Positions 8,786 to 52,571 of a stretch of 53,159 nucleotides of DNA are shown one piece after another. Position 1 is the first letter of the stretch; every line of letters begins with the position of its first letter. Under the pieces are notes generated by a model. The model saw nothing but the letters and a program-made list of their open reading frames with translations. It did not search any database and was not told the DNA's origin. A program made the translations under genes and the position numbers. Source of the DNA: an uncultured Bacilli bacterium (GTDB lineage Bacteria > Bacillota_I > Bacilli_A > RF39 > UBA660); assembly GCA_947625215.1 (NCBI GenBank), contig CANQNL010000003.1:1-53159 (forward strand), given 5' to 3'.

Positions 8786-9406
8786 ATGGAAAAATTAAGT
8801 AATAGAGCTGTTGTAATCATTGGATTTATTGCCATTGGCTTTGGTATTTTCTTACTTACTTATGATTATTTTGCTGGTAAAAAGGAAAAAGCATATGAAA
8901 AGGTTAATATATCATTATTTAGTGAAAGTGAAGAGGGAATAGTAATTGATAATACACCACAAAATATTGCTGCTGCTGATATTGGAACGACAGTTGAATC
9001 TGGTGAAGGTGGGCAATATCTAGGAGTATTAAAGATAGATAAAATTAATCTTGAACAAGGATTTTATGATAAAGGAAACGCTTATAATAATGTTGGTAAA
9101 AGTGTTACTTTACTAGAACCATCTAATTATCCGGATGAAAAAAATGGTAATACTATTTTAGTTGCTCATTCAGGTACTAGTTATCTTGGATATTTTAGAA
9201 ATTTATATCAGTTACAAATAGGTGATGAAGCAACAATTAAATATAAAGGTAATACTTATATTTATAAAATAACTAATATTTATAATGAAACTAAAGATGG
9301 GGACGTTATGATATATAGAAATAAAAATAAATCTACATTAACACTTATCACTTGTACAAAAAATAGTGATACTGAGCAAACTATTTATATAGCTGAATTA
9401 CAATAA
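8786..9406 (+). CDS. Sortase family protein
   Basis: N-terminal TM anchor, ILVAHSG (His) and TLTLITC (Cys). Gln lies where the conserved Arg is usually found (TEQTIY). Confidence 0.85.
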   Translation: MEKLSNRAVVIIGFIAIGFGIFLLTYDYFAGKKEKAYEKVNISLFSESEEGIVIDNTPQNIAAADIGTTVESGEGGQYLGVLKIDKINLEQGFYDKGNAYNNVGKSVTLLEPSNYPDEKNGNTILVAHSGTSYLGYFRNLYQLQIGDEATIKYKGNTYIYKITNIYNETKDGDVMIYRNKNKSTLTLITCTKNSDTEQTIYIAELQ

Positions 9407-9472: not shown

Positions 9473-9508
9473 TTGCCAAAAACCTGGGGGGGGGGGGGGG
9501 GGTATAAT
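9473..9508 (+). promoter_or_regulatory. Poly-G (G17) spacer promoter of P1
   Basis: TTGCCA(9473-78)-AAAACCT-G17-TATAAT(9503-08); spacer 24 nt. Confidence 0.85.
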
Positions 9509-9541: not shown

Positions 9542-11074
9542 ATGAGCGAAAAAAGAAAGAGAAATATAATAATATTTTCATTATGTGGAGTACTATTATT
9601 AATGACTATCGGATATGCTGCCTTTAATACACTACTAAATATAAATGGGACAACAAGTATAACAAGTAACTGGGATATAAAAATAACAAATATTACTAGT
9701 AAAGATAAAATAGGAGATGCTTCTGATGAAGAATCACAAGTAGTAGATGATCTATCTGCTACATTTAAAGCAAATTTAGTAAGTCCCGGTGATTCCATAA
9801 CCTACGATATAACCGTTGAAAATAAAGGAAATATAAATGCCGAGTTAGATAGTATTGATGTTAGTGAAAACACTAACGAAAATATAAAAATAGACATTTC
9901 AGGAATAGCTGAAGGAGATAAATTAAATGCCAGTAGCACGGCAACATTAAGTGTAAAAGTAACATATAGTGATGATGTAACAACGCAGCCTGATAATCTA
10001 GAAACAGAAGTAACTATAACCTTAAATTATGTTCAGGAAGGAATGAGAACACTATTTCCAACTTCAATAGATTTTGAAACAGTATCAACAACTAATTCAA
10101 TAACCGTAACGGCAACAAAAGTAAGTGGGGCTACTTATGAATTTAAAAAAGATGGTGAAGCTTATATAAGTAATGGTAAAAATAATGTTTATACCTTTAG
10201 TGAAATAACTCATAATACAGAACATCAAATTCAAGTTAAAGTAACAAAAGGAGAAAATACTTTAGAATCTGAAACTAAACCGATAAGAACCAACACCTTA
10301 CAAGCGCCAACCATCTCTATATCTTCATATACCGTTAATATGACCTTTCCTGCAGAATGTGCAGATGGGACATATACTTGTTCATATACTTTATCAGGAG
10401 CTCTAACTGGGACAACAACTGTTACCTCAACATCAGCTAGTGTTACTAATTCGAACATTGGTGTCAGTTTAACTGTAAAAGCCGATGTTAGTGATGGATA
10501 TAATACTGTTTCACAGTCACGTACGATGGAAACAGGTAGTTGTTTTGTAGCTGGAACGAAAGTATTAACTGAAAATGGCTTAAAAAATATTGAAGAATTA
10601 AAAATAGGGGAAAAAGTATATTCATATAATGAAAAAACCGAAAAATCTGAATTAAAGCCAATAACTAAAGTATACGTGCGTGAAAGATATGGAATAGTAA
10701 CATTAAAATATGAAAAATTAGATAACATAAACGGAAAAGTATATAATAACATCGATACACATTTTAATAAAAAAGAAAAAAATAATGAAATACAATCAAC
10801 CTTTGATCATCCATATTATGTCATAAATAAAGGATGGGTGGTAGCATCAAAATTAGAAATAGGAGATAGGATATTATCTATAGATAATAGTGAAATAGTT
10901 GTAAGAAGCTTACAAACTAATGAAGTAGATAAAACAAAAGTATATAATATGGAGGTAGAAGACAATCACAATTATTATGTAGGCTATGATAATCTTTTAG
11001 TTCACAATGATGAAAATTGGGGAAATCCTATTATGCCTATGGCTGGGGATTGCACTCGACCTGGGGTATATTAG
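9542..11074 (+). CDS. Family member P1: exported modular protein with C-terminal Hint domain and 21-aa tail
   Basis: N-terminal basic+hydrophobic segment, NLVSPGD..Y.I.VEN.G domain, FN3-like segment, variable domain. Hint motifs CFVAGT (Cys1), STFDHPY (block B) and VYNMEVEDNHNYYV..LLVHN. Confidence 0.88.
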   Translation: MSEKRKRNIIIFSLCGVLLLMTIGYAAFNTLLNINGTTSITSNWDIKITNITSKDKIGDASDEESQVVDDLSATFKANLVSPGDSITYDITVENKGNINAELDSIDVSENTNENIKIDISGIAEGDKLNASSTATLSVKVTYSDDVTTQPDNLETEVTITLNYVQEGMRTLFPTSIDFETVSTTNSITVTATKVSGATYEFKKDGEAYISNGKNNVYTFSEITHNTEHQIQVKVTKGENTLESETKPIRTNTLQAPTISISSYTVNMTFPAECADGTYTCSYTLSGALTGTTTVTSTSASVTNSNIGVSLTVKADVSDGYNTVSQSRTMETGSCFVAGTKVLTENGLKNIEELKIGEKVYSYNEKTEKSELKPITKVYVRERYGIVTLKYEKLDNINGKVYNNIDTHFNKKEKNNEIQSTFDHPYYVINKGWVVASKLEIGDRILSIDNSEIVVRSLQTNEVDKTKVYNMEVEDNHNYYVGYDNLLVHNDENWGNPIMPMAGDCTRPGVY

Positions 11075-11210: not shown

Positions 11211-11241
11211 TTGCCAGAAACCTGGGGGGGGGGGGTATAAT
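11211..11241 (+). promoter_or_regulatory. Poly-G (G12) spacer promoter of P2
   Basis: TTGCCA-GAAACCT-G12-TATAAT; spacer 19 nt. Confidence 0.85.
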
Positions 11242-11274: not shown

Positions 11275-12795
11275 ATGAGTGAAAAAAGAAAGAGAAATGT
11301 AATAATATATTCATTATGCGGAGTATTACTATTAATGACTATTGGATATGCCGCATTTAATACACTTTTAACGATAAACGGAACAACATCAATTAGTAGT
11401 AACTGGGATATAAAGATAACAAATATTACCAACAAAGATATAGTAGGTAAAGCTTCAGATGAAGAATCACAAGTAGTAGATGACTTAAAAGCTACCTTTA
11501 AAGCTAATTTAGTAAGCCCTGGAGATTCTATAACTTATGATATAACCGTAGAAAACAAAGGAAATATAAATGCTGAGTTAGATAGTATCGATGTTAGTGA
11601 AAACACCAATGAAAATATAAAAATAGTAACTTCAGGAATAGCTGAAGGTGATAAATTAAATCCTAGTAGTACGGCAACCTTAAGTGTAAAAGTAACATAT
11701 AGTGATGAAGTTACAACGCAACCTGATAATTTAAAAGCGGAAGTAACAATAACTTTAAATTATATTCAAGAAGGAACAGGAATGCCAGAAACAATAGATT
11801 TTGAAACAGAATCAACAACAAGAGCAATAACTGTAACTGCACCAGCAGTTAGAGGTGCTACATATGAATTTAAAAAAGATACTGAAGAATACGTAAGTAA
11901 TGATGACCCCACTAATAATATATATACCTTTGACCAAATAACTCATAATACTCAGCATAATATCCAAGTAAAAGTAACAAAAGGAAGCAAAGTAATTGAA
12001 TCAGATGTGAAACCTGTTAGTACTAATGCTTTACCATCTCCTTCTATCACTGGGTCGGGCGAGACCGCTTATATGACATTTCCAGAGGAATGCGCCACAG
12101 GTGTATTTACTTGTCAGTATCGTACAGTAACCGACGTTAGTAGCCAAAATGTCACAAGAAGTGTAACTTCGCAGTCAGCTTCCTGGACTATCCAAGTTCA
12201 ATATGTTGGTTCTGATACTTATGGCGTTCACGGGACCGTTTATGCTAGTGTATCAGATGGATTTAATAAGGTTGAGGTTTCTGCGGGTTTAGTGAAACAA
12301 TGCTTTGTGGCTGGAACGAAAGTCTGGGCAGAAAAAGGTTTAGTGAATATAGAAGATTTGAAAGATGGGGATAAAGTATATTCATATAATGAAAAAACAA
12401 GAAAAGTGGAATTAAATGAAATATATAATACATATAACCGAAAAACGGATAAACTAATAACTTTAAGATATGCAAAAAATAATAAGATAAAACCAAATTA
12501 TAATACAAATAATATAGAAGAACATTATAATTCATCATCATCAGAAGAAGATAATATAATTAAATGTACACTTACTCATCGCTTTTATGTAGTAGGAAAA
12601 GGCTGGACACCTGCTAAAAAAATAGAAGTAGGAGATGAAATATTATCAATAGATGGTAGTGAAATTATAATAACAGATATTCAAACAAATACAGTTAAGC
12701 CAACTGCAGTATATAACTTTAGTGTAGTAGGTAATCATAATTATTATGTAGGTATGGGACTACTTGTCCATAATAAATATATGGTAGGAGTGTAG
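11275..12795 (+). CDS. Family member P2: exported modular protein with C-terminal Hint domain and 6-aa tail
   Basis: Same N-terminus as P1; Hint motifs CFVAGT, CTLTHRF and VYNFSVVGNHNYYVGMGLLVHN, followed by KYMVGV*. Confidence 0.88.
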   Translation: MSEKRKRNVIIYSLCGVLLLMTIGYAAFNTLLTINGTTSISSNWDIKITNITNKDIVGKASDEESQVVDDLKATFKANLVSPGDSITYDITVENKGNINAELDSIDVSENTNENIKIVTSGIAEGDKLNPSSTATLSVKVTYSDEVTTQPDNLKAEVTITLNYIQEGTGMPETIDFETESTTRAITVTAPAVRGATYEFKKDTEEYVSNDDPTNNIYTFDQITHNTQHNIQVKVTKGSKVIESDVKPVSTNALPSPSITGSGETAYMTFPEECATGVFTCQYRTVTDVSSQNVTRSVTSQSASWTIQVQYVGSDTYGVHGTVYASVSDGFNKVEVSAGLVKQCFVAGTKVWAEKGLVNIEDLKDGDKVYSYNEKTRKVELNEIYNTYNRKTDKLITLRYAKNNKIKPNYNTNNIEEHYNSSSSEEDNIIKCTLTHRFYVVGKGWTPAKKIEVGDEILSIDGSEIIITDIQTNTVKPTAVYNFSVVGNHNYYVGMGLLVHNKYMVGV

Positions 12796-12821
12796 CAGAT
12801 AATCATAATTATTATGTAAGA

Positions 12822-13013
12822 GATGGAGCAACGGTCAAATATAAAGGTAATACTTATATTTATAAAATAACTAATATTTATAATGAAACCAAAGATGGAG
12901 ACGTTATGATATATAGAAATAAAAATAAATCCACTTTAACACTCATCACTTGTACAAAAAATAGTGATACTGAGCGAACTATATATATAGCTGAATTACA
13001 ATAAAAATAATTG
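12822..13013 (+). pseudogene. Sortase 3' fragment (192-bp direct repeat, copy 2)
   Basis: Encodes ...KYKGNTYIYKITNIY...TLTLITCTKNSDTERTIYIAELQ* with no start codon; about 94% identical to 9224-9415. Confidence 0.88.
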
Positions 13014-25938: not shown

Positions 25939-26065
25939 CATAATAAAAACGCACCATATTTTTACTTATAAAAAGCAGAATATAATTAAGTAAAAAATGA
26001 CTTGGTGCGCATATGGAGCCTAAGCCCCTTTAGATAAGCTTTACTTACCTAAAGGAGCCTAGGCT
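25939..26065. repeat. 127-bp double-hairpin element, copy A (downstream of P4)
   Basis: Matches 45697-45823 with 2 mismatches. Contains the arms CGCACCA..TTTTTACTTA / TAAGTAAAAA..TGGTGCG and CCTTTAG..TAAG / CTTA..CTAAAGG. Confidence 0.9.
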
Positions 26066-26079
26066 CATTTAATATAAAC

Positions 26080-27102
26080 TCAATCAGCACAATTCCATGC
26101 ATTAACCCACTCTAAATCTGAGGTAGTATTATACCCATCGCTTACTTCTGCCAATATATTGACTCTTTGATTCCAATTTCCAATATACACATTTATTGTT
26201 GGAGACGTTACTGTTACCTTTTCATTTCGACCACCAGAAAATGTATATGAGCAAATATATGTACCGTTACATTCAGCAGGGAATGTCATACTAGTAGAAC
26301 AGTCAGGAGTTACACTTGGTGATGGCAACAATAAGGTACTAACAGATTTAACTTCTGATTCTATCTCTTTTCCATCTTTTGTTGTTAGTTTAACTTGAAT
26401 ATTATGTTCCGTATTATGGGTTATTTGGTCAAAGATGTGCGTAGAACTATCTTCAACATAATCTGCTGTATCTAATTTATATTCATATTTTGTTATTTCT
26501 GCCCTTGGTTCTATTTTTGGTGTTACCGTTATTGACCTAGTTGTTGATACTGTTTCAAAATCTACTATAGGATCTGGGTCTGGTATTACCTCTCCTTTTC
26601 CTAATTGTTCAAAGGTAAAGCTTATCTTTACTTCACTACTTCCTATTTCTGGTACGCCGTTAAAATCTGGATTATATTCGATTTTTACTTTGATTATTTT
26701 TACCCCTTTACTTGATAATGTCTCTCCCTTTTCATATCCACTTGTTGTTATTTTTATAGCATCGTGATTACTTACAGTTGTCTGTTCAACATTTGTAAGT
26801 ACAGCATCCAATGTTCCTTTATTTTCGATAGTTACATCGTATTCTATGGAATCCCCTTTTTGATATAAGTTAGCTTCCATACTGGCCGTTAATTCTGACC
26901 AAACTGGATTATTTACTTCTTCGGCCATATTAGTTATATTAGTTCTTTCTACATTAGTTATTTTTATTTCCCAGTTACTTGTTATACTAGTTGTTCCATT
27001 TATATCAAGGAGTGTATTAAAAGCGGCATACCCTACAGTCATAAAGAGTAATACTCCGCATAGCGAGCATATTATTATATTTCTTTTTTTGCGTTCACTC
27101 AT
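26080..27102 (-). CDS. Family member P4: conserved N-terminus, FN3-like segment and variable Cys domain, no Hint
   Basis: MSERKKRNIIICSLCGVLLFMTVGYAAFNTLL; ends VSDGYN...NAWNCAD*. Confidence 0.85.
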   Translation of the reverse strand: MSERKKRNIIICSLCGVLLFMTVGYAAFNTLLDINGTTSITSNWEIKITNVERTNITNMAEEVNNPVWSELTASMEANLYQKGDSIEYDVTIENKGTLDAVLTNVEQTTVSNHDAIKITTSGYEKGETLSSKGVKIIKVKIEYNPDFNGVPEIGSSEVKISFTFEQLGKGEVIPDPDPIVDFETVSTTRSITVTPKIEPRAEITKYEYKLDTADYVEDSSTHIFDQITHNTEHNIQVKLTTKDGKEIESEVKSVSTLLLPSPSVTPDCSTSMTFPAECNGTYICSYTFSGGRNEKVTVTSPTINVYIGNWNQRVNILAEVSDGYNTTSDLEWVNAWNCAD

Positions 27103-27194
27103 AATTATCACTCCTAAAATTAATATAGCCAAAATATTTTATTTTATTTATCATTACATAACTAATTTATTACTTTATATTTTTTCTACTTTAT

Positions 27195-43057: not shown

Positions 43058-43654
43058 TTATATCTTTTTTAGTACTTTAATTTTTCCTTTAACTAAATAT
43101 TCTAATGAACTTTCATCACATTTATTAAAATCAGGATTCCAATAATTATGTGCCATTTCTAAACTCTCGTTGTAGCTAATTCCAATACTAGGAAGAAAAT
43201 CAGCACTTGATACAAACATTGTTCCCGACACTGCCACTTTAAGTAACTCTCTATCACCTGGCAAATCTTTTTTCCAAGTTATTATTTGTGGTTCATCACA
43301 AACCCAAATAGCTTCTCTACGACTAATTTTATTGGGATAATATTCTCTTCTTACTTCTTCTAAAGCATTTTCTCTCTGACAAATAAGTAGATTATGAATA
43401 TATATATCGGAATACTCAAGCAATATATCAATTGTATTATCATCTGGTTTACTTTTTCTATAATGTCTTATTATTTGATAAAATGGTAAATATTCATTAT
43501 CAAATTGTTCTAAATAAGATGTATTATTTCCTGAACTTGTATAGTTACTTAAAAAATCTTTTGAAGTATTATCAATAGTGCTACCTTCAACCCATAACTC
43601 TGGATAAATATTAAGTCTATGTAAATGATACATTGTTTTATTATTAACTTCCAT
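43058..43654 (-). CDS. Hypothetical protein, DUF2441-like
   Basis: RENALEEVRREYYPNKISRREAIWVC...AHNYW...EYLVKG pattern. Confidence 0.6.
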   Translation of the reverse strand: MEVNNKTMYHLHRLNIYPELWVEGSTIDNTSKDFLSNYTSSGNNTSYLEQFDNEYLPFYQIIRHYRKSKPDDNTIDILLEYSDIYIHNLLICQRENALEEVRREYYPNKISRREAIWVCDEPQIITWKKDLPGDRELLKVAVSGTMFVSSADFLPSIGISYNESLEMAHNYWNPDFNKCDESSLEYLVKGKIKVLKKI

Positions 43655-43746
43655 AAAAGGTCCCCCTTTTTAACCGAAAATATTTTATCATATAATCGAT
43701 AAATGTCAAACTAAAGATTATATAAAATTATATTTATTAAAAAATT

Positions 43747-43778
43747 AATCATATGAAACTATTATATTTCATATGATT
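43747..43778. terminator. Hairpin terminator downstream of the P5 / orphan Hint cassette
   Basis: 12-bp perfect stem AATCATATGAAA / TTTCATATGATT. Confidence 0.65.
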
Positions 43779-43793
43779 TTCTTTGAATATTAA

Positions 43794-43967
43794 TTATGGA
43801 TAATTATTACAAGGTCCAAACGCATAGTTATGAACTAAAAGGCCATAAAAACTTACATAATAATTTTGATTATCTTCTACTGATATATTATATACTGATA
43901 TTGTTTTAACCCTATTTACTTGTTTATTTGTTATTGTAACTTCATCATTGTCACGTTTTTTACTCAT
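43794..43967 (-). other. Orphan Hint C-terminal fragment plus tail (57-codon ORF, absent from the ORF track)
   Basis: Hand translation MSKKRDNDEVTITNKQVNRVKTISVYNISVEDNQNYYVSFYGLLVHN-YAFGPCNNYP*; same frame as P5, 54 nt after its stop. Confidence 0.85.
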
Positions 43968-44021
43968 ACCGCATCAACCAGCCCACGTCTCCTATGGATT
44001 ACCTTAACCAGATATAACTTA

Positions 44022-45023
44022 CTAGCACCAGCTCGGATTCGCCGTCACCTGATTAATACCATCCGACACAGTAGTAGTACATCCCACACCCACCTTGCAA
44101 GGGGACGATGGGGTAGTAACAGAAACCGACGTCGAATGTACTTGGCCAGATCCCACAGAAGCAGGATAACAAACATATGAACAAGTATAAGTACCATCTG
44201 CACAGCCAGTTGGAAATGTTATTGTCATTATCCGACCTGAACCAAAGCTAGTAGATGTAGATGGTAAAGCATTAGTACTAACAGGTTTCATATCTGATTC
44301 TACTACTTTGCTTCCTTTTGTTACTTTAACTTGAATATTGTGAGAAGTATTATGAGTTATTTGATCAAAGGTATATACATTATTAGTGGGGTCATCATTA
44401 CTTACGTATTCTTCAGTATCTTTTTTAAATTCATATGTCGCACCTCTAACTACTGGTGCAGTTACAGTTATTGCTCTTGTTGTTGATTCTGTCTCAAAAT
44501 CTATTGCCTCTGGCATTCCTGTTCCTTCTTGGATATAATTTAAAGTTATAGTTACTTCCGCTTTTAAATTATCAGGTTGCGTTGTGACTTCATCACTATA
44601 TGTTACTTTTACGCTTAAGGTTGCCGTACTACTAGGATTTAATTTATCCCCTTCAGCTATTCCTGAAGTTGCTATTTTTATATTTTCATTTGTGTTTTCA
44701 CTAACATCAATACTATCTAACTCAGCATTGATATTTCCTTTATTTTCAACAGTTATATCATAAGTTATAGAATCTCCAGGGCTTACTAAATTAGCTTTAA
44801 AGGTAGCAGATAGGTCATCTACTACTTGGGACTCTTCATCAGAAGCTTTTCCTACTATATCTTTACTAGTAATTCCAGTTATCTTTATATCCCAGTTACT
44901 ACTAATTGATGTTGTTCCGTTTATAGTTAAAAGTGTATTGAAAGCAGCATATCCGATAGTCATTAATAATAGTACTCCGCATAATGAATATATTATTATA
45001 TTTCTCTTTCTTTTTTCACTCAT
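44022..45023 (-). CDS. Family member P5: P2-type constant region with a different variable domain, ending at Cys
   Basis: First 255 codons are near-identical to P2; ends VSDGINQVTANPSWC*. Confidence 0.88.
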   Translation of the reverse strand: MSEKRKRNIIIYSLCGVLLLMTIGYAAFNTLLTINGTTSISSNWDIKITGITSKDIVGKASDEESQVVDDLSATFKANLVSPGDSITYDITVENKGNINAELDSIDVSENTNENIKIATSGIAEGDKLNPSSTATLSVKVTYSDEVTTQPDNLKAEVTITLNYIQEGTGMPEAIDFETESTTRAITVTAPVVRGATYEFKKDTEEYVSNDDPTNNVYTFDQITHNTSHNIQVKVTKGSKVVESDMKPVSTNALPSTSTSFGSGRIMTITFPTGCADGTYTCSYVCYPASVGSGQVHSTSVSVTTPSSPCKVGVGCTTTVSDGINQVTANPSWC

Positions 45024-45057
45024 ACATTTTTCTCCTTACCTAGTTTATTCTATAAAT

Positions 45058-45088
45058 ATTATACCCCCCCCCCCCAGGTTTTTGGCAA
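45058..45088 (-). promoter_or_regulatory. Poly-G (G12) spacer promoter of P5
   Basis: Minus strand TTGCCA-AAAACCT-G12-TATAAT; spacer 19 nt. Confidence 0.85.
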
Positions 45089-45244
45089 GTATTTTTAAGG
45101 AAAAAAATGATATTTTTCTATTTCTAAATTTAGTTTTACCTATATTTCTTATTTTATACCTTGGTATGGGTAATACAAATGCCTTATTATAATAATATCA
45201 CGCATAATGCTAATTAGTAAATATGAACAAAACCAAAATAAATT

Positions 45245-45598
45245 TTGACTGCCTTACTTCACAGTAAGGCATTTCTACTTCACCGAAACTACTGCTCTCC
45301 ATAGACCAATTTCCGATGGTCACCACCGTATTTGTATTTTTTTAGTCAAAAATTTATTGGTTATTAAACGTTTATTGTTCTAATATATTGTTTTAATCAT
45401 TCAAATAATATATTCTCAGCGCATTATAATCTCTATCGTGTATTGTAGACATTCACACTTTCTTATACTTAAATCTTTTATCTCCTTATTTTGAATTACA
45501 TCTACTACATATCTGACTACTTGGATAGTATCTATCTATTTTGATTAATTTTTCTGTTTATCATTAGGATACATCCTAAATACATAAGCTTTATACAT
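45245..45598 (-). mobile_element. Internally deleted IS200/IS605-family tnpB remnant with right end / omega-RNA region
   Basis: RBS AGGGGG followed by MYKAYVFRMYPNDKQK (TnpB N-terminal HTH), then frameshifted YPSSQICSRC, KDLSIRK and HDRDYNA (Zn ribbon / RuvC-III). The 3' tail ACGGTGGTGACCATCGG..TGGAGA..TCGGTGAAGTAGAAA leads to a 9-bp hairpin TGCCTTACT/AGTAAGGCA and terminal TCAA. Left end not defined. Confidence 0.82.
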
Positions 45599-45696: not shown

Positions 45697-45823
45697 CATA
45701 ATAAAAACGCACCATATTTTTACTTATAAAAAGCAGAATATAATTAAGTAAAAAATGACTTGGTGCGTATATGGAGCCTAAGCCCCTTTAGATAAGCTTT
45801 ACTTACCTAAAGGAGCCTGGGCT
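45697..45823. repeat. 127-bp double-hairpin element, copy B (downstream of P6)
   Basis: Matches 25939-26065 with 2 mismatches; abuts the P6 stop codon. Confidence 0.9.
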
Positions 45824-46863
45824 TAGTAATACAAACACGGTGTAGATGAGTTAGATGAACAAGAATTAGTTACTGTATTATATCCATCACTAACACTTGT
45901 TGAAGTAATAGTACTACCACCAGTCATATAAGTATCGCATGAACATAAGCCAGCATTACATACAGAAGAACAATTACTACAACCAGAAACACTCAAACTA
46001 CAGGTTAATCCATTTGAACATCCTTCAGGAAAACTAGCCTGGCCACCAACAGGTACTCTAGAAGCTGAACACCCAGTTGTATTTTCAAGTAATAAAGTAC
46101 TAACAGGTTTAACTTCTGATTCTATCTCTTTTCCATCTTTTGTTGTTAGTTTAACTTGAATATTATGTTCCGTATTATGCGTTATTTGGTCAAAGATGTG
46201 CGTAGAACTATCTTCAACATAATCTGCTGTATCTAATTTATATTCATATTTTGTTATTTCTGCCCTTGGTTCTATTTTTGGTGTTACCGTTATTGACCTA
46301 GTTGTTGATACTGTTTCAAAATCTACTATAGGATCTGGGTCTGGTATTACCTCTCCTTTTCCTAATTGTTCAAAGGTAAAGCTTATCTTTACTTCACTAC
46401 TTCCTATTTCTGGTACGCCGTTAAAATCTGGATTATATTCGATTTTTACTTTGATTATTTTTACCCCTTTACTTGATAATGTCTCTCCCTTTTCATATCC
46501 ACTTGTTGTTATTTTTATAGCATCGTGATTACTTACAGTTGTCTGTTCAACATTTGTAAGTACAGCATCCAATGTTCCTTTATTTTCGATAGTTACATCG
46601 TATTCTATGGAATCCCCTTTTTGATATAAGTTAGCTTCCATACTGGCCGTTAATTCTGACCAAACTGGATTATTTACTTCTTCGGCCATATTAGTTATAT
46701 TAGTTCTTTCTACATTAGTTATTTTTATTTCCCAGTTACTTGTTATACTAGTTGTTCCATTTATATCAAGGAGTGTATTAAAAGCGGCATACCCTACAGT
46801 CATAAAGAGTAATACTCCGCATAGCTAGCATATTATTATATTTCTTCTTTTGCGTTCACTCAT
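45823..46863 (-). pseudogene. Family member P6: P4-type constant region with an in-frame TAG at codon 13 and a Cys/Ser-rich variable tip
   Basis: ATG at 46863 with the family RBS. Codon 13 is TAG (46825-27) where P4 has TCG; the remainder is open to PCLYY*. Confidence 0.85.
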
Positions 46864-46897
46864 ACATTCTTCTCCTTACCTAGTTTACTCTAAGTAT

Positions 46898-46928
46898 ATT
46901 ATACCCCCCCCCCCCAGGTTCTTGACAA
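46898..46928 (-). promoter_or_regulatory. Poly-G (G12) spacer promoter of P6
   Basis: Minus strand TTGTCA-AGAACCT-G12-TATAAT; spacer 19 nt. Confidence 0.85.
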
Positions 46929-52543: not shown

Positions 52544-52571
52544 ATTATACCCCCCCCCAGGTTTTTGGCAA
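52544..52571 (-). promoter_or_regulatory. Poly-G (G9) spacer promoter of P7
   Basis: Minus strand TTGCCA-AAAACCT-G9-TATAAT; spacer 16 nt. Confidence 0.85.

Follow-up and report, generated by a model that had tools for sequence, protein, structure and literature searches.

A Hint fragment behind a secreted-protein gene of a gut Bacilli genome is probably the remnant of a lost autoprocessing domain

The DNA analysed here (the window) is a stretch of 53,159 nucleotides (nt) of contig CANQNL010000003.1, from assembly GCA_947625215.1 of an uncultured Bacilli bacterium. On its minus strand, behind a gene referred to as P5, lies a 57-codon open reading frame (ORF) that encodes the end of a Hint domain followed by a tail of ten residues. 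Probably this ORF is what a rearrangement left, untranslated, of the 3' part of an A-type bacterial intein-like (BIL)/PT-HINT module, and it now lies in the 3' untranslated region of P5. Its homology covers a portion of a domain that paralogs of P5 have in full, and the start signals and essential parts are lost. Most likely, it represents neither a new split intein nor a new toxin cassette but a gene scar of an ordinary kind. The elements of the locus are as follows:

44022-45023, minus strand: P5, a short-form (Hint-less) family member of 333 residues, ending in ...SDGINQVTANPSW-C and then TAG
44025-44252, minus strand: variable Cys-rich region of P5, its DNA unique from about 44175, 47% GC
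44024-44019, minus strand: double stop TAG-TAA (TAG 44024-44022, TAA 44021-44019), immediately after the terminal Cys
44021-43968, minus strand: spacer of 54 nt, 44% GC and 25% A, with TAA, TAA, TAG and TGA in the frame of P5
43794-43967, minus strand: 57-codon ORF (ATG at 43967, stop 43796-43794) in the same frame as P5, sequence MSKKRDNDEVTITNKQVNRVKTISVYNISVEDNQNYYVSFYGLLVHNYAFGPCNNYP
43952-43827, minus strand: Hint blocks F and G, residues 6-47 of the ORF, found with TIGR01443, tblastn and the family profile
43826-43797, minus strand: tail YAFGPCNNYP, residues 48-57 of the ORF, the ten residues after HN
43731-43778, minus strand: terminator-like AT-rich hairpin, arms 43778-43767 and 43758-43747, then UUAAUUUUUU (U-run)

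The fragment carries the end of a Hint domain

A preliminary description of this DNA, which named no strand, had noted an open 57-codon frame holding the last Hint strands, the tail YAFGPCNNYP and a terminator, and each of these was recovered, on the minus strand. The NCBIfam model TIGR01443 (intein_Cterm) matched the ORF with 30.8 bits (cutoff 15.6, E 2.4e-7), and a hidden Markov model (HMM) profile of about 173 positions, built from five full-length Hints of the family, aligned to it at positions 118-160. With the Hint domains of paralogs A and B as tblastn queries, the alignment spanned 43952-43827. The hairpin after the stop of the fragment is a perfect 12-bp AT inverted repeat with a fold of -14.7 kcal/mol (z -3.54). 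The paralogs of the window in which a Hint was found are these:

9542-11074: paralog A, with a complete C-terminal PT-HINT (68 bits) and a tail of 21 residues after HN
11275-12795: paralog B, with a complete C-terminal PT-HINT (58 bits) and a tail of 6 residues after HN
cut by the window end: paralog G, of which the Hint 3' end and a tail of 19 residues are seen

The nearest solved structure to the Hint of A and B is the BIL domain 2LWY, matched over the whole domain (E 3.9e-28). Both Hints have Cys1, TxxH and an HN followed by a non-nucleophile, which identifies them as A-type BIL domains, as in PMC7765530. BIL domains are located in hypervariable regions of non-conserved secreted proteins (PMC7765530). 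Compared with A-type BIL/PT-HINT domains (PF07591; 2LWY, Clostridium thermocellum), A and B match the whole domain and share the variable-region setting, while the fragment corresponds to the last ~42 residues. It differs in lacking Cys1 and blocks A and B, so that there is no domain, in having Gln for the block-F His and in standing alone behind a stop codon.

Over the fragment stretch, the family alignment has nine invariant columns, and the fragment retains every one of them, including VYN, N, YV, L and HN. The block-F His that is Gln in the fragment is kept in all full-length family members, and the PT-HINT model gave only 15.8 bits on the ORF, below its cutoff of 27.7. About 115 Hint codons are missing at the P5 locus, among them Cys1, block A and block B (TxxH), and the missing part includes the most conserved segment of the domain (CFVAGTKV...GEKVYSYN). 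None of Cys1, block A and the block B TxxH was found within the fragment polypeptide, whose ORF begins at profile position ~118. Because these parts are missing, the remnant should be unable to cleave or to splice.

The ATG of the fragment falls outside the Hint homology detectable by blastn and tblastn. Its closest AGGAG lies 21 nt upstream, with nothing at 5-10 nt; for contrast, the ribosome-binding site (RBS) of P5 lies at 8 nt and that of the DUF2441 gene further downstream at 6 nt. A distance of 21 nt is too far for use as an RBS and leaves the fragment without a usable one, in agreement with the earlier remark that no strong RBS precedes the frame.

No Pfam or NCBIfam match was found beyond the Hint part of the ORF. 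Relatives of the tail were sought in two ways. A word-indexed search of 5.8e9 proteins returned just the ORF itself. An exhaustive phmmer search of 1.84e9 representatives gave 13 hits for which a stretch was reported; 12 of them stopped at query residues 48-51, at HN or just after, and the exception was a 27%-identity match reaching residue 55. The preliminary description had proposed looking for this tail on a full-length Hint gene, and neither search yielded one.

P5 ends where the Hint domain of its paralogs begins

The C-terminus of P5, ...ANPSW-C, had already been read as W-C-TAG, and the sequence bears this out. Its last residue, Cys333, shares an alignment column with the Hint Cys1 of paralog B (CFVAGT...). 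With this Cys at the Cys1 position and ~115 codons absent, the third of the readings first put forward for the fragment, the remains of a deleted Hint, is supported.

Homology breakpoints delimit the exchanged DNA. By blastn, P5 and B share 92.7% identity from 45095, which is 70 nt ahead of the start codon, down to 44252, and P5 and A share 81% identity up to 44175. From those breakpoints to ~43955, the DNA has no similarity to anything in the window; Hint similarity then returns at 43952-43944, where the DNA is 74-80% identical to that of G, A and B across 80-94 nt. At the protein level, the variable block of P5 is the variable region of the family (...FPTGCADGTYTCSY...VSDGINQV...), and no repeat of this 3' block was found in the window. 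A diversity-generating retroelement or a foreign origin for this GC-richer, A-poor block was considered and rejected; every paralog has a variable region of similarly low A content (36-47% GC), which follows from the many Ser, Thr, Gly and Cys residues it encodes.

Further scars of rearrangement occur in the family. A second Hint block-F stub (IYGRSVADNHNYYV, 12777-12818, plus strand) lies directly past the stop of B, in another frame, and runs into a near-identical second copy of the final ~60 codons, TLITC included, of a sortase gene (8786-9406); the fused segment occupies 12777-13003 (plus strand), and the tail of B, KYMVGV, is the same stub read out of frame. The Hint-less paralogs D (25939-27103, minus strand) and E (45697-46864, minus strand) share 99.35% identity over 774 nt, then carry unrelated variable cassettes of ~250 nt, and are again 95.7% identical for 141 nt downstream, a pattern indicating that cassettes are exchanged between conserved flanks in this family. 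E has a premature in-frame stop in its signal peptide and is hence a pseudogene. Between E and P5, at 45396-45557 (minus strand), lies a degraded TnpB/Cas12f1-like zinc-ribbon (TNB) segment with internal stops (PF07282, 35.8 bits), an IS200/IS605-type relic.

These scars argue for a remnant, as does the recurrence of Hint-less short forms among relatives from other metagenome-assembled genomes (MAGs), namely P0005, P0006 and P0136 beside the long forms P0004, P0007 and P0008. The same is indicated by the arrangement of signals: there is no RBS for the fragment, no terminator-like site was found between the P5 stop and the fragment, and the hairpin follows right after it. That the tail was found on no other protein and that the block-F His is replaced by Gln point in the same direction.

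The sequence of events can be pictured as follows. An A-type BIL/PT-HINT module would once have formed the C-terminus of a long-form gene at the P5 locus. A rearrangement would then have swapped out the old variable region together with the first ~115 Hint codons and put in their place today's variable block of P5, with its terminal Cys and double stop, plus ~54 nt. Probably, this was a variable-cassette exchange of the type that other paralogs show, its right-hand junction being illegitimate and located within the Hint. At its 3' end, the long-form gene would have kept only the final ~42 codons of the Hint, the tail of 10 codons and its original terminator, presumably the hairpin, which would now end the P5 transcript; the remnant is probably transcribed with P5 up to this point and not translated. 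The loss of the Hint may be tolerated by P5, because P5 encodes about what N-terminal cleavage by the Hint would release from the long form. Among known systems, the best-fitting category is that of gene remnants of cassette exchange in multigene surface-protein families, given a fragment at a mosaic-block junction, homopolymer promoters and other scars nearby.

The spacer and the points against a remnant

In the frame of P5 and counted from its TAG, the DNA up to the fragment reads stop-stop-VISG-stop-GNP-stop-ETWAG-stop-CG, with five stops including P5's own; three-frame translation thus confirmed the 54 nt with stops given in the preliminary description. The decayed G-W-x-D-A-like trace that had been seen there is not above chance. 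In local alignments of the spacer with the Hint DNA of A, B and P0007, the score was 18 against 20.1 +/- 2.7 for shuffles, 433 of 500 of which reached it, whereas a control taken from the fragment itself outscored all shuffles in the same test. No Hint profile match was found in the spacer in any frame. Relics of a Hint N-terminus or of a 'KGW' segment in the spacer were rejected on these two results. That such traces arise easily is clear from the fact that the same bases yield two mutually exclusive relics, 'ET..G.C' in the frame of P5 and 'GW' in a different one.

Two other interpretations of this region were tried. The ORF start, MSKKR, might have been the 5' end of an internally deleted paralog (the family start is MSEKRKRN), a candidate rejected despite a 13/14-nt match; spacer and ORF start scored 24 against all family 5' regions, with a shuffle mean of 24.4 +/- 3.7. 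Translation of the fragment by ribosomes coming from P5, whether through read-through, recoding or hopping, is excluded in practice by five stops of all three kinds and by the lack of any frame that stays open across the gap. A TGC-TAG ... TGA-TGC take-off and landing pair is present, without structure (no structure was found in the spacer, z -0.02), and the product of hopping would still miss most of the Hint.

Several observations weigh against a remnant. The 57 codons are open, for which the chance is ~0.3% at this composition (calculated from base frequencies), the nine invariant family positions are all intact, and the fragment is in frame with P5, a one-in-three chance. A simple internal deletion does not explain the spacer, which has no Hint similarity and a GC content (44%) that resembles the P5 variable block (47%), unlike Hint DNA (27% GC, 45% A); with such a spacer a clean internal deletion fails, and a replacement fits better. 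The ratio of nonsynonymous to synonymous substitution (dN/dS), a check suggested in the preliminary description, was 0.36-0.48 for the fragment against A, B and P0007: no decay is visible, and the values are indistinguishable from those of functional pairs (0.31-0.63). Such unremarkable values are expected if most of the divergence predates a recent truncation, and they are also compatible with constraint. Lastly, an orthologous long-form allele representing the ancestral state, which would end in ...LLVHNYAFGPCNNYP, was not found. Exact-protein look-ups of P5, P0004, P0005, P0006 and P0136 returned nothing, and a scan of species-representative genomes gave only relatives at <=52% identity or short partial matches, with no P5-type synteny.

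The locus has the same layout in other samples

The window derives from a rabbit-gut metagenome in which the organism, a Bacilli/Clostridia MAG, was present at ~3x depth, and all four runs found to contain the sequence are DNA runs of one rabbit-gut study at about this depth. At ~3x depth and with many near-identical paralogs, a chimera between paralogs has to be considered. The P5 end, spacer and fragment were, however, 100% identical in two further ENA assemblies (L001 and L044), one of which extends to the start of the DUF2441 gene, and single Logan unitigs cross the junction (in the X1 record, 43958-44161). In a second rabbit sample (run X4), a 163-nt unitig over 43919-44080 has the same layout with 7 substitutions and no indels. 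The sharing of this layout with a diverged sample indicates that it is real and older than the strain split, and an assembly artefact is extremely improbable.

In the X4 variant, the P5 stop TAG is changed to GAG (Glu), and the next TAA still terminates. Within the final eight codons of P5 (44024-44047), three substitutions are nonsynonymous, and the spacer has two changes. The fragment has no stops or indels, and in the part covered by this strain it has a single substitution, R5G, outside the Hint part. As a rough estimate, divergence was 7/162 nt at the P5 end and spacer against 2/296 nt (~0.7%) in two flanking housekeeping unitigs (Fisher p 0.011); on this comparison, the end of P5, with its variable C-terminus, and the spacer appear to evolve fast. 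One of the ENA assemblies (L044, 333-1334; protein P0137) holds a P5 allele with an identical 3' half, B-like substitutions in the 5' half and a different stretch at residues 154-172, resulting either from recombination among paralogs or from a low-coverage chimera.

Comparison with split inteins

The fragment spans about the region of an IntC, the C-terminal piece of a split intein, as the preliminary description had said, and as anatomy this is correct. Like natural IntC pieces (e.g. that of DnaE), it comprises blocks F and G, about 36-42 residues ending in HN, in a separate ORF. It could in principle be a translated micro-protein that pairs in trans with a Hint N-terminal fragment made elsewhere, to splice or to cleave, and its 42 Hint residues, ATG, open frame, intact HN and own terminator are what such a peptide would have. 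Against this, no Shine-Dalgarno sequence lies at a working distance, the ATG is outside detectable Hint homology, the block-F His has become Gln, and residue +1 after HN is Tyr, not the Cys, Ser or Thr of a nucleophile. The partner is likewise missing from the window: P5 stops at Cys1, a six-frame HMM search of the window found no Hint N-terminal pieces outside the complete domains of A and B, and the window thus holds no N-terminal-only ORF and no IntN. The ten-residue 'extein' is part of no known protein, let alone a conserved one. Inteins sit in a conserved host protein, whereas the P5 family has autoprocessing domains of the BIL type. A trans-acting IntC-like peptide, as once proposed, thus fails most of the split-intein features examined (RBS, +1 residue, partner in the window, tail), and we consider it very unlikely.

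The downstream gene and polymorphic toxins

Behind the hairpin lies one further unit:

43058-43709, minus strand: next transcription unit, with promoter TTGACA-16-TAAAAT (43709-43682) and a 198-residue DUF2441 gene (43654-43058)

The promoter has 11/12 matches with TG in a promoter scan, with a near-consensus extended -10, and the gene (Pfam, 31.4 bits) has its own RBS at 6 nt and is out of frame with the fragment.

PT-HINT is the pre-toxin domain of many polymorphic toxins. The fragment resembles the orphan cassettes of such systems (Rhs, CdiA, WapA, PT-HINT) in combining a short homology to the end of the pre-toxin region with a different C-terminus downstream of the main gene. It might accordingly be an orphan module, with the Hint stub as a handle, an alternative C-terminal effector and an immunity gene, perhaps including DUF2441. 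A true stub with a 118-residue orphan does occur in a Chryseobacterium locus (L025), and DUF2441 belongs to the ADP-ribosyltransferase (ART) clan of Pfam (PMC7955679). Here, however, the 'effector' has only 10 residues and no toxin domain, P5 has no region homologous to the stub, DNA identity to the other copies is low, and behind the fragment there is no small ORF resembling an immunity gene. DUF2441 is encoded separately, behind a terminator, with a strong promoter and an RBS of its own, and no DUF2441 neighbour was found among 41 related Hint loci. Moreover, 15 of the 16 related Hints that could be read have tails of 1-31 residues. An orphan toxin module is, on this evidence, highly improbable.

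Exchange among paralogs and a possible reservoir

The mosaic structure of the family raises the possibility that the fragment is a silent reservoir or homology arm, kept within a cassette-swapping system of these variable surface proteins so that gene conversion can give P5 a Hint again, with another tail, or pass the fragment's own tail to paralogs. D and E have swapped cassettes, P5 and B diverge abruptly after 92.7% identity, P0136, a 336-residue protein from another MAG, has the P5-type N-terminus with a third variable cassette and a short-form end ...ARCEAC, the frame and catalytic HN of the fragment are intact, and a second stub lies behind B. As a substrate for homologous recombination, however, 74-80% identity over 80-94 nt is poor, and the longest exact run shared with any other Hint copy in the window, read from the sequences, is ~14 nt. 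The tail has never been seen on a full-length gene, an HMM search found no stub behind the short forms D and E, and the stub behind B, joined to a piece of sortase, is a scar rather than a cassette. We therefore regard a reservoir as unlikely. A bolder version, quite improbable in our view, would make the stub a maintained right-hand recombination arm, with the family toggling between Hint-bearing (self-cleaving) and Hint-less states and swapping post-Hint tails, the orphan being a silent part of this programmed variation. The earlier proposals of an orphan toxin cassette or silent reservoir lack their defining elements: there is neither a toxin domain nor, within the unit, an immunity gene, exact identity to other Hint copies in the window does not exceed ~14 nt, and this tail was seen on no full-length gene. 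The remnant of a lost Hint remains the preferred explanation.

The paralog family and its relatives

The window is chromosomal, with ~29% GC, and carries nusA, infB, cdaA, spoVG, gerQ and cotJB. Its eight paralogs share the N-terminus MSEKRKRNIII...GYAAFNTLL.INGT, which we take to resemble a SipW-dependent TasA signal (...GTWA|AFND). Weak camelysin and BsaA matches were obtained for the paralogs, and a DUF7507/CARDB-like Ig region for P5. While D and E are Hint-less like P5, C and F end in a different domain. The upstream region of P5 is as follows:

45035-45095, minus strand: P5 promoter and RBS region, TTGCCA, 19-nt spacer and TATAAT, conserved across the family (upstream alignment)

Its promoter spacer contains a G12 tract (45064-45075), and AAGGAG lies 8 nt ahead of the ATG. 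Poly-G tracts are found in five family promoters, at 9486-9502 (G17), 11224-11235 (G12), 45064-45075 (G12), 46904-46915 (G12) and 52550-52558 (G9), each between a TTGCCA or TTGTCA -35 and a TATAAT -10, with spacer lengths of 24, 19, 19, 19 and 16 nt. The pattern resembles slipped-strand phase variation acting on promoter strength, although the lengths of homopolymers are uncertain in a 3x metagenome assembly.

Hint-less short forms (P5, 44025; D, 26080-26100; P0005, P0006 and P0136) have a Cys 10-17 residues past SDG(Y/F/I)N, at the Hint Cys1 position of the long forms, and 0-15 residues follow that Cys in every one of them. Either the short forms were truncated repeatedly at the Hint boundary or the Hint was inserted ahead of a pre-existing Cys. 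After HN, a tail motif DE..(Y)PIM(P/T)M..G.C is common to A (11009-11071), G (53078-53022) and P0004, with which the fragment tail YAFGPCNNYP shares just a Cys; the motif may act as a recognition element or be released as a peptide.

The 41 related Hint loci come from species-representative genomes, mostly of gut Bacilli, Mollicutes and Clostridium MAGs, and a motif scan could read 16 of them. In 15 of these, the protein ends with the Hint and a tail of just 1-31 residues, so that these Hints are not toxin carriers; the sole readable locus in which the Hint continues into a long C-terminal region is L006 (Leptospirales). Across loci L002-L034, the Hint commonly ends secreted proteins of 250-450 residues in gut Bacilli, Mollicutes and Clostridium MAGs, with 1-13 residues after HN (e.g. 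SPV, KGV, ESVF), an arrangement of the Hedgehog-like 'cut yourself off' kind, unlike a pre-toxin. The Chryseobacterium locus (L025, 7833, plus strand) is a textbook orphan, a Hint stub followed by ~118 residues, and two loci from Mollicutes-type MAGs (L038, 4524-5520; L040, 287-710) have Hint genes split by frameshifts in A-runs. The architecture of the P5 family, with C-terminal BIL domains and very short tails, is common in gut Bacilli MAGs; a limited text search found no publication on a Hint-bearing TasA-type protein.

Implications

Annotation of the fragment as a gene, intein or toxin cassette should be avoided. What it probably marks is the conversion of a long-form Hint gene into a short form that ends exactly at the Hint catalytic Cys. 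Such a conversion, as read from the sequence, supports the idea that in the P5 family the Hint may serve only to cut itself off the secreted N-terminal part. The surrounding family is of more interest than the fragment itself: at least eight TasA/SipW-type secreted proteins, showing swapped variable cassettes, promoters with poly-G tracts, and BIL domains that are C-terminal and followed by very short tails.

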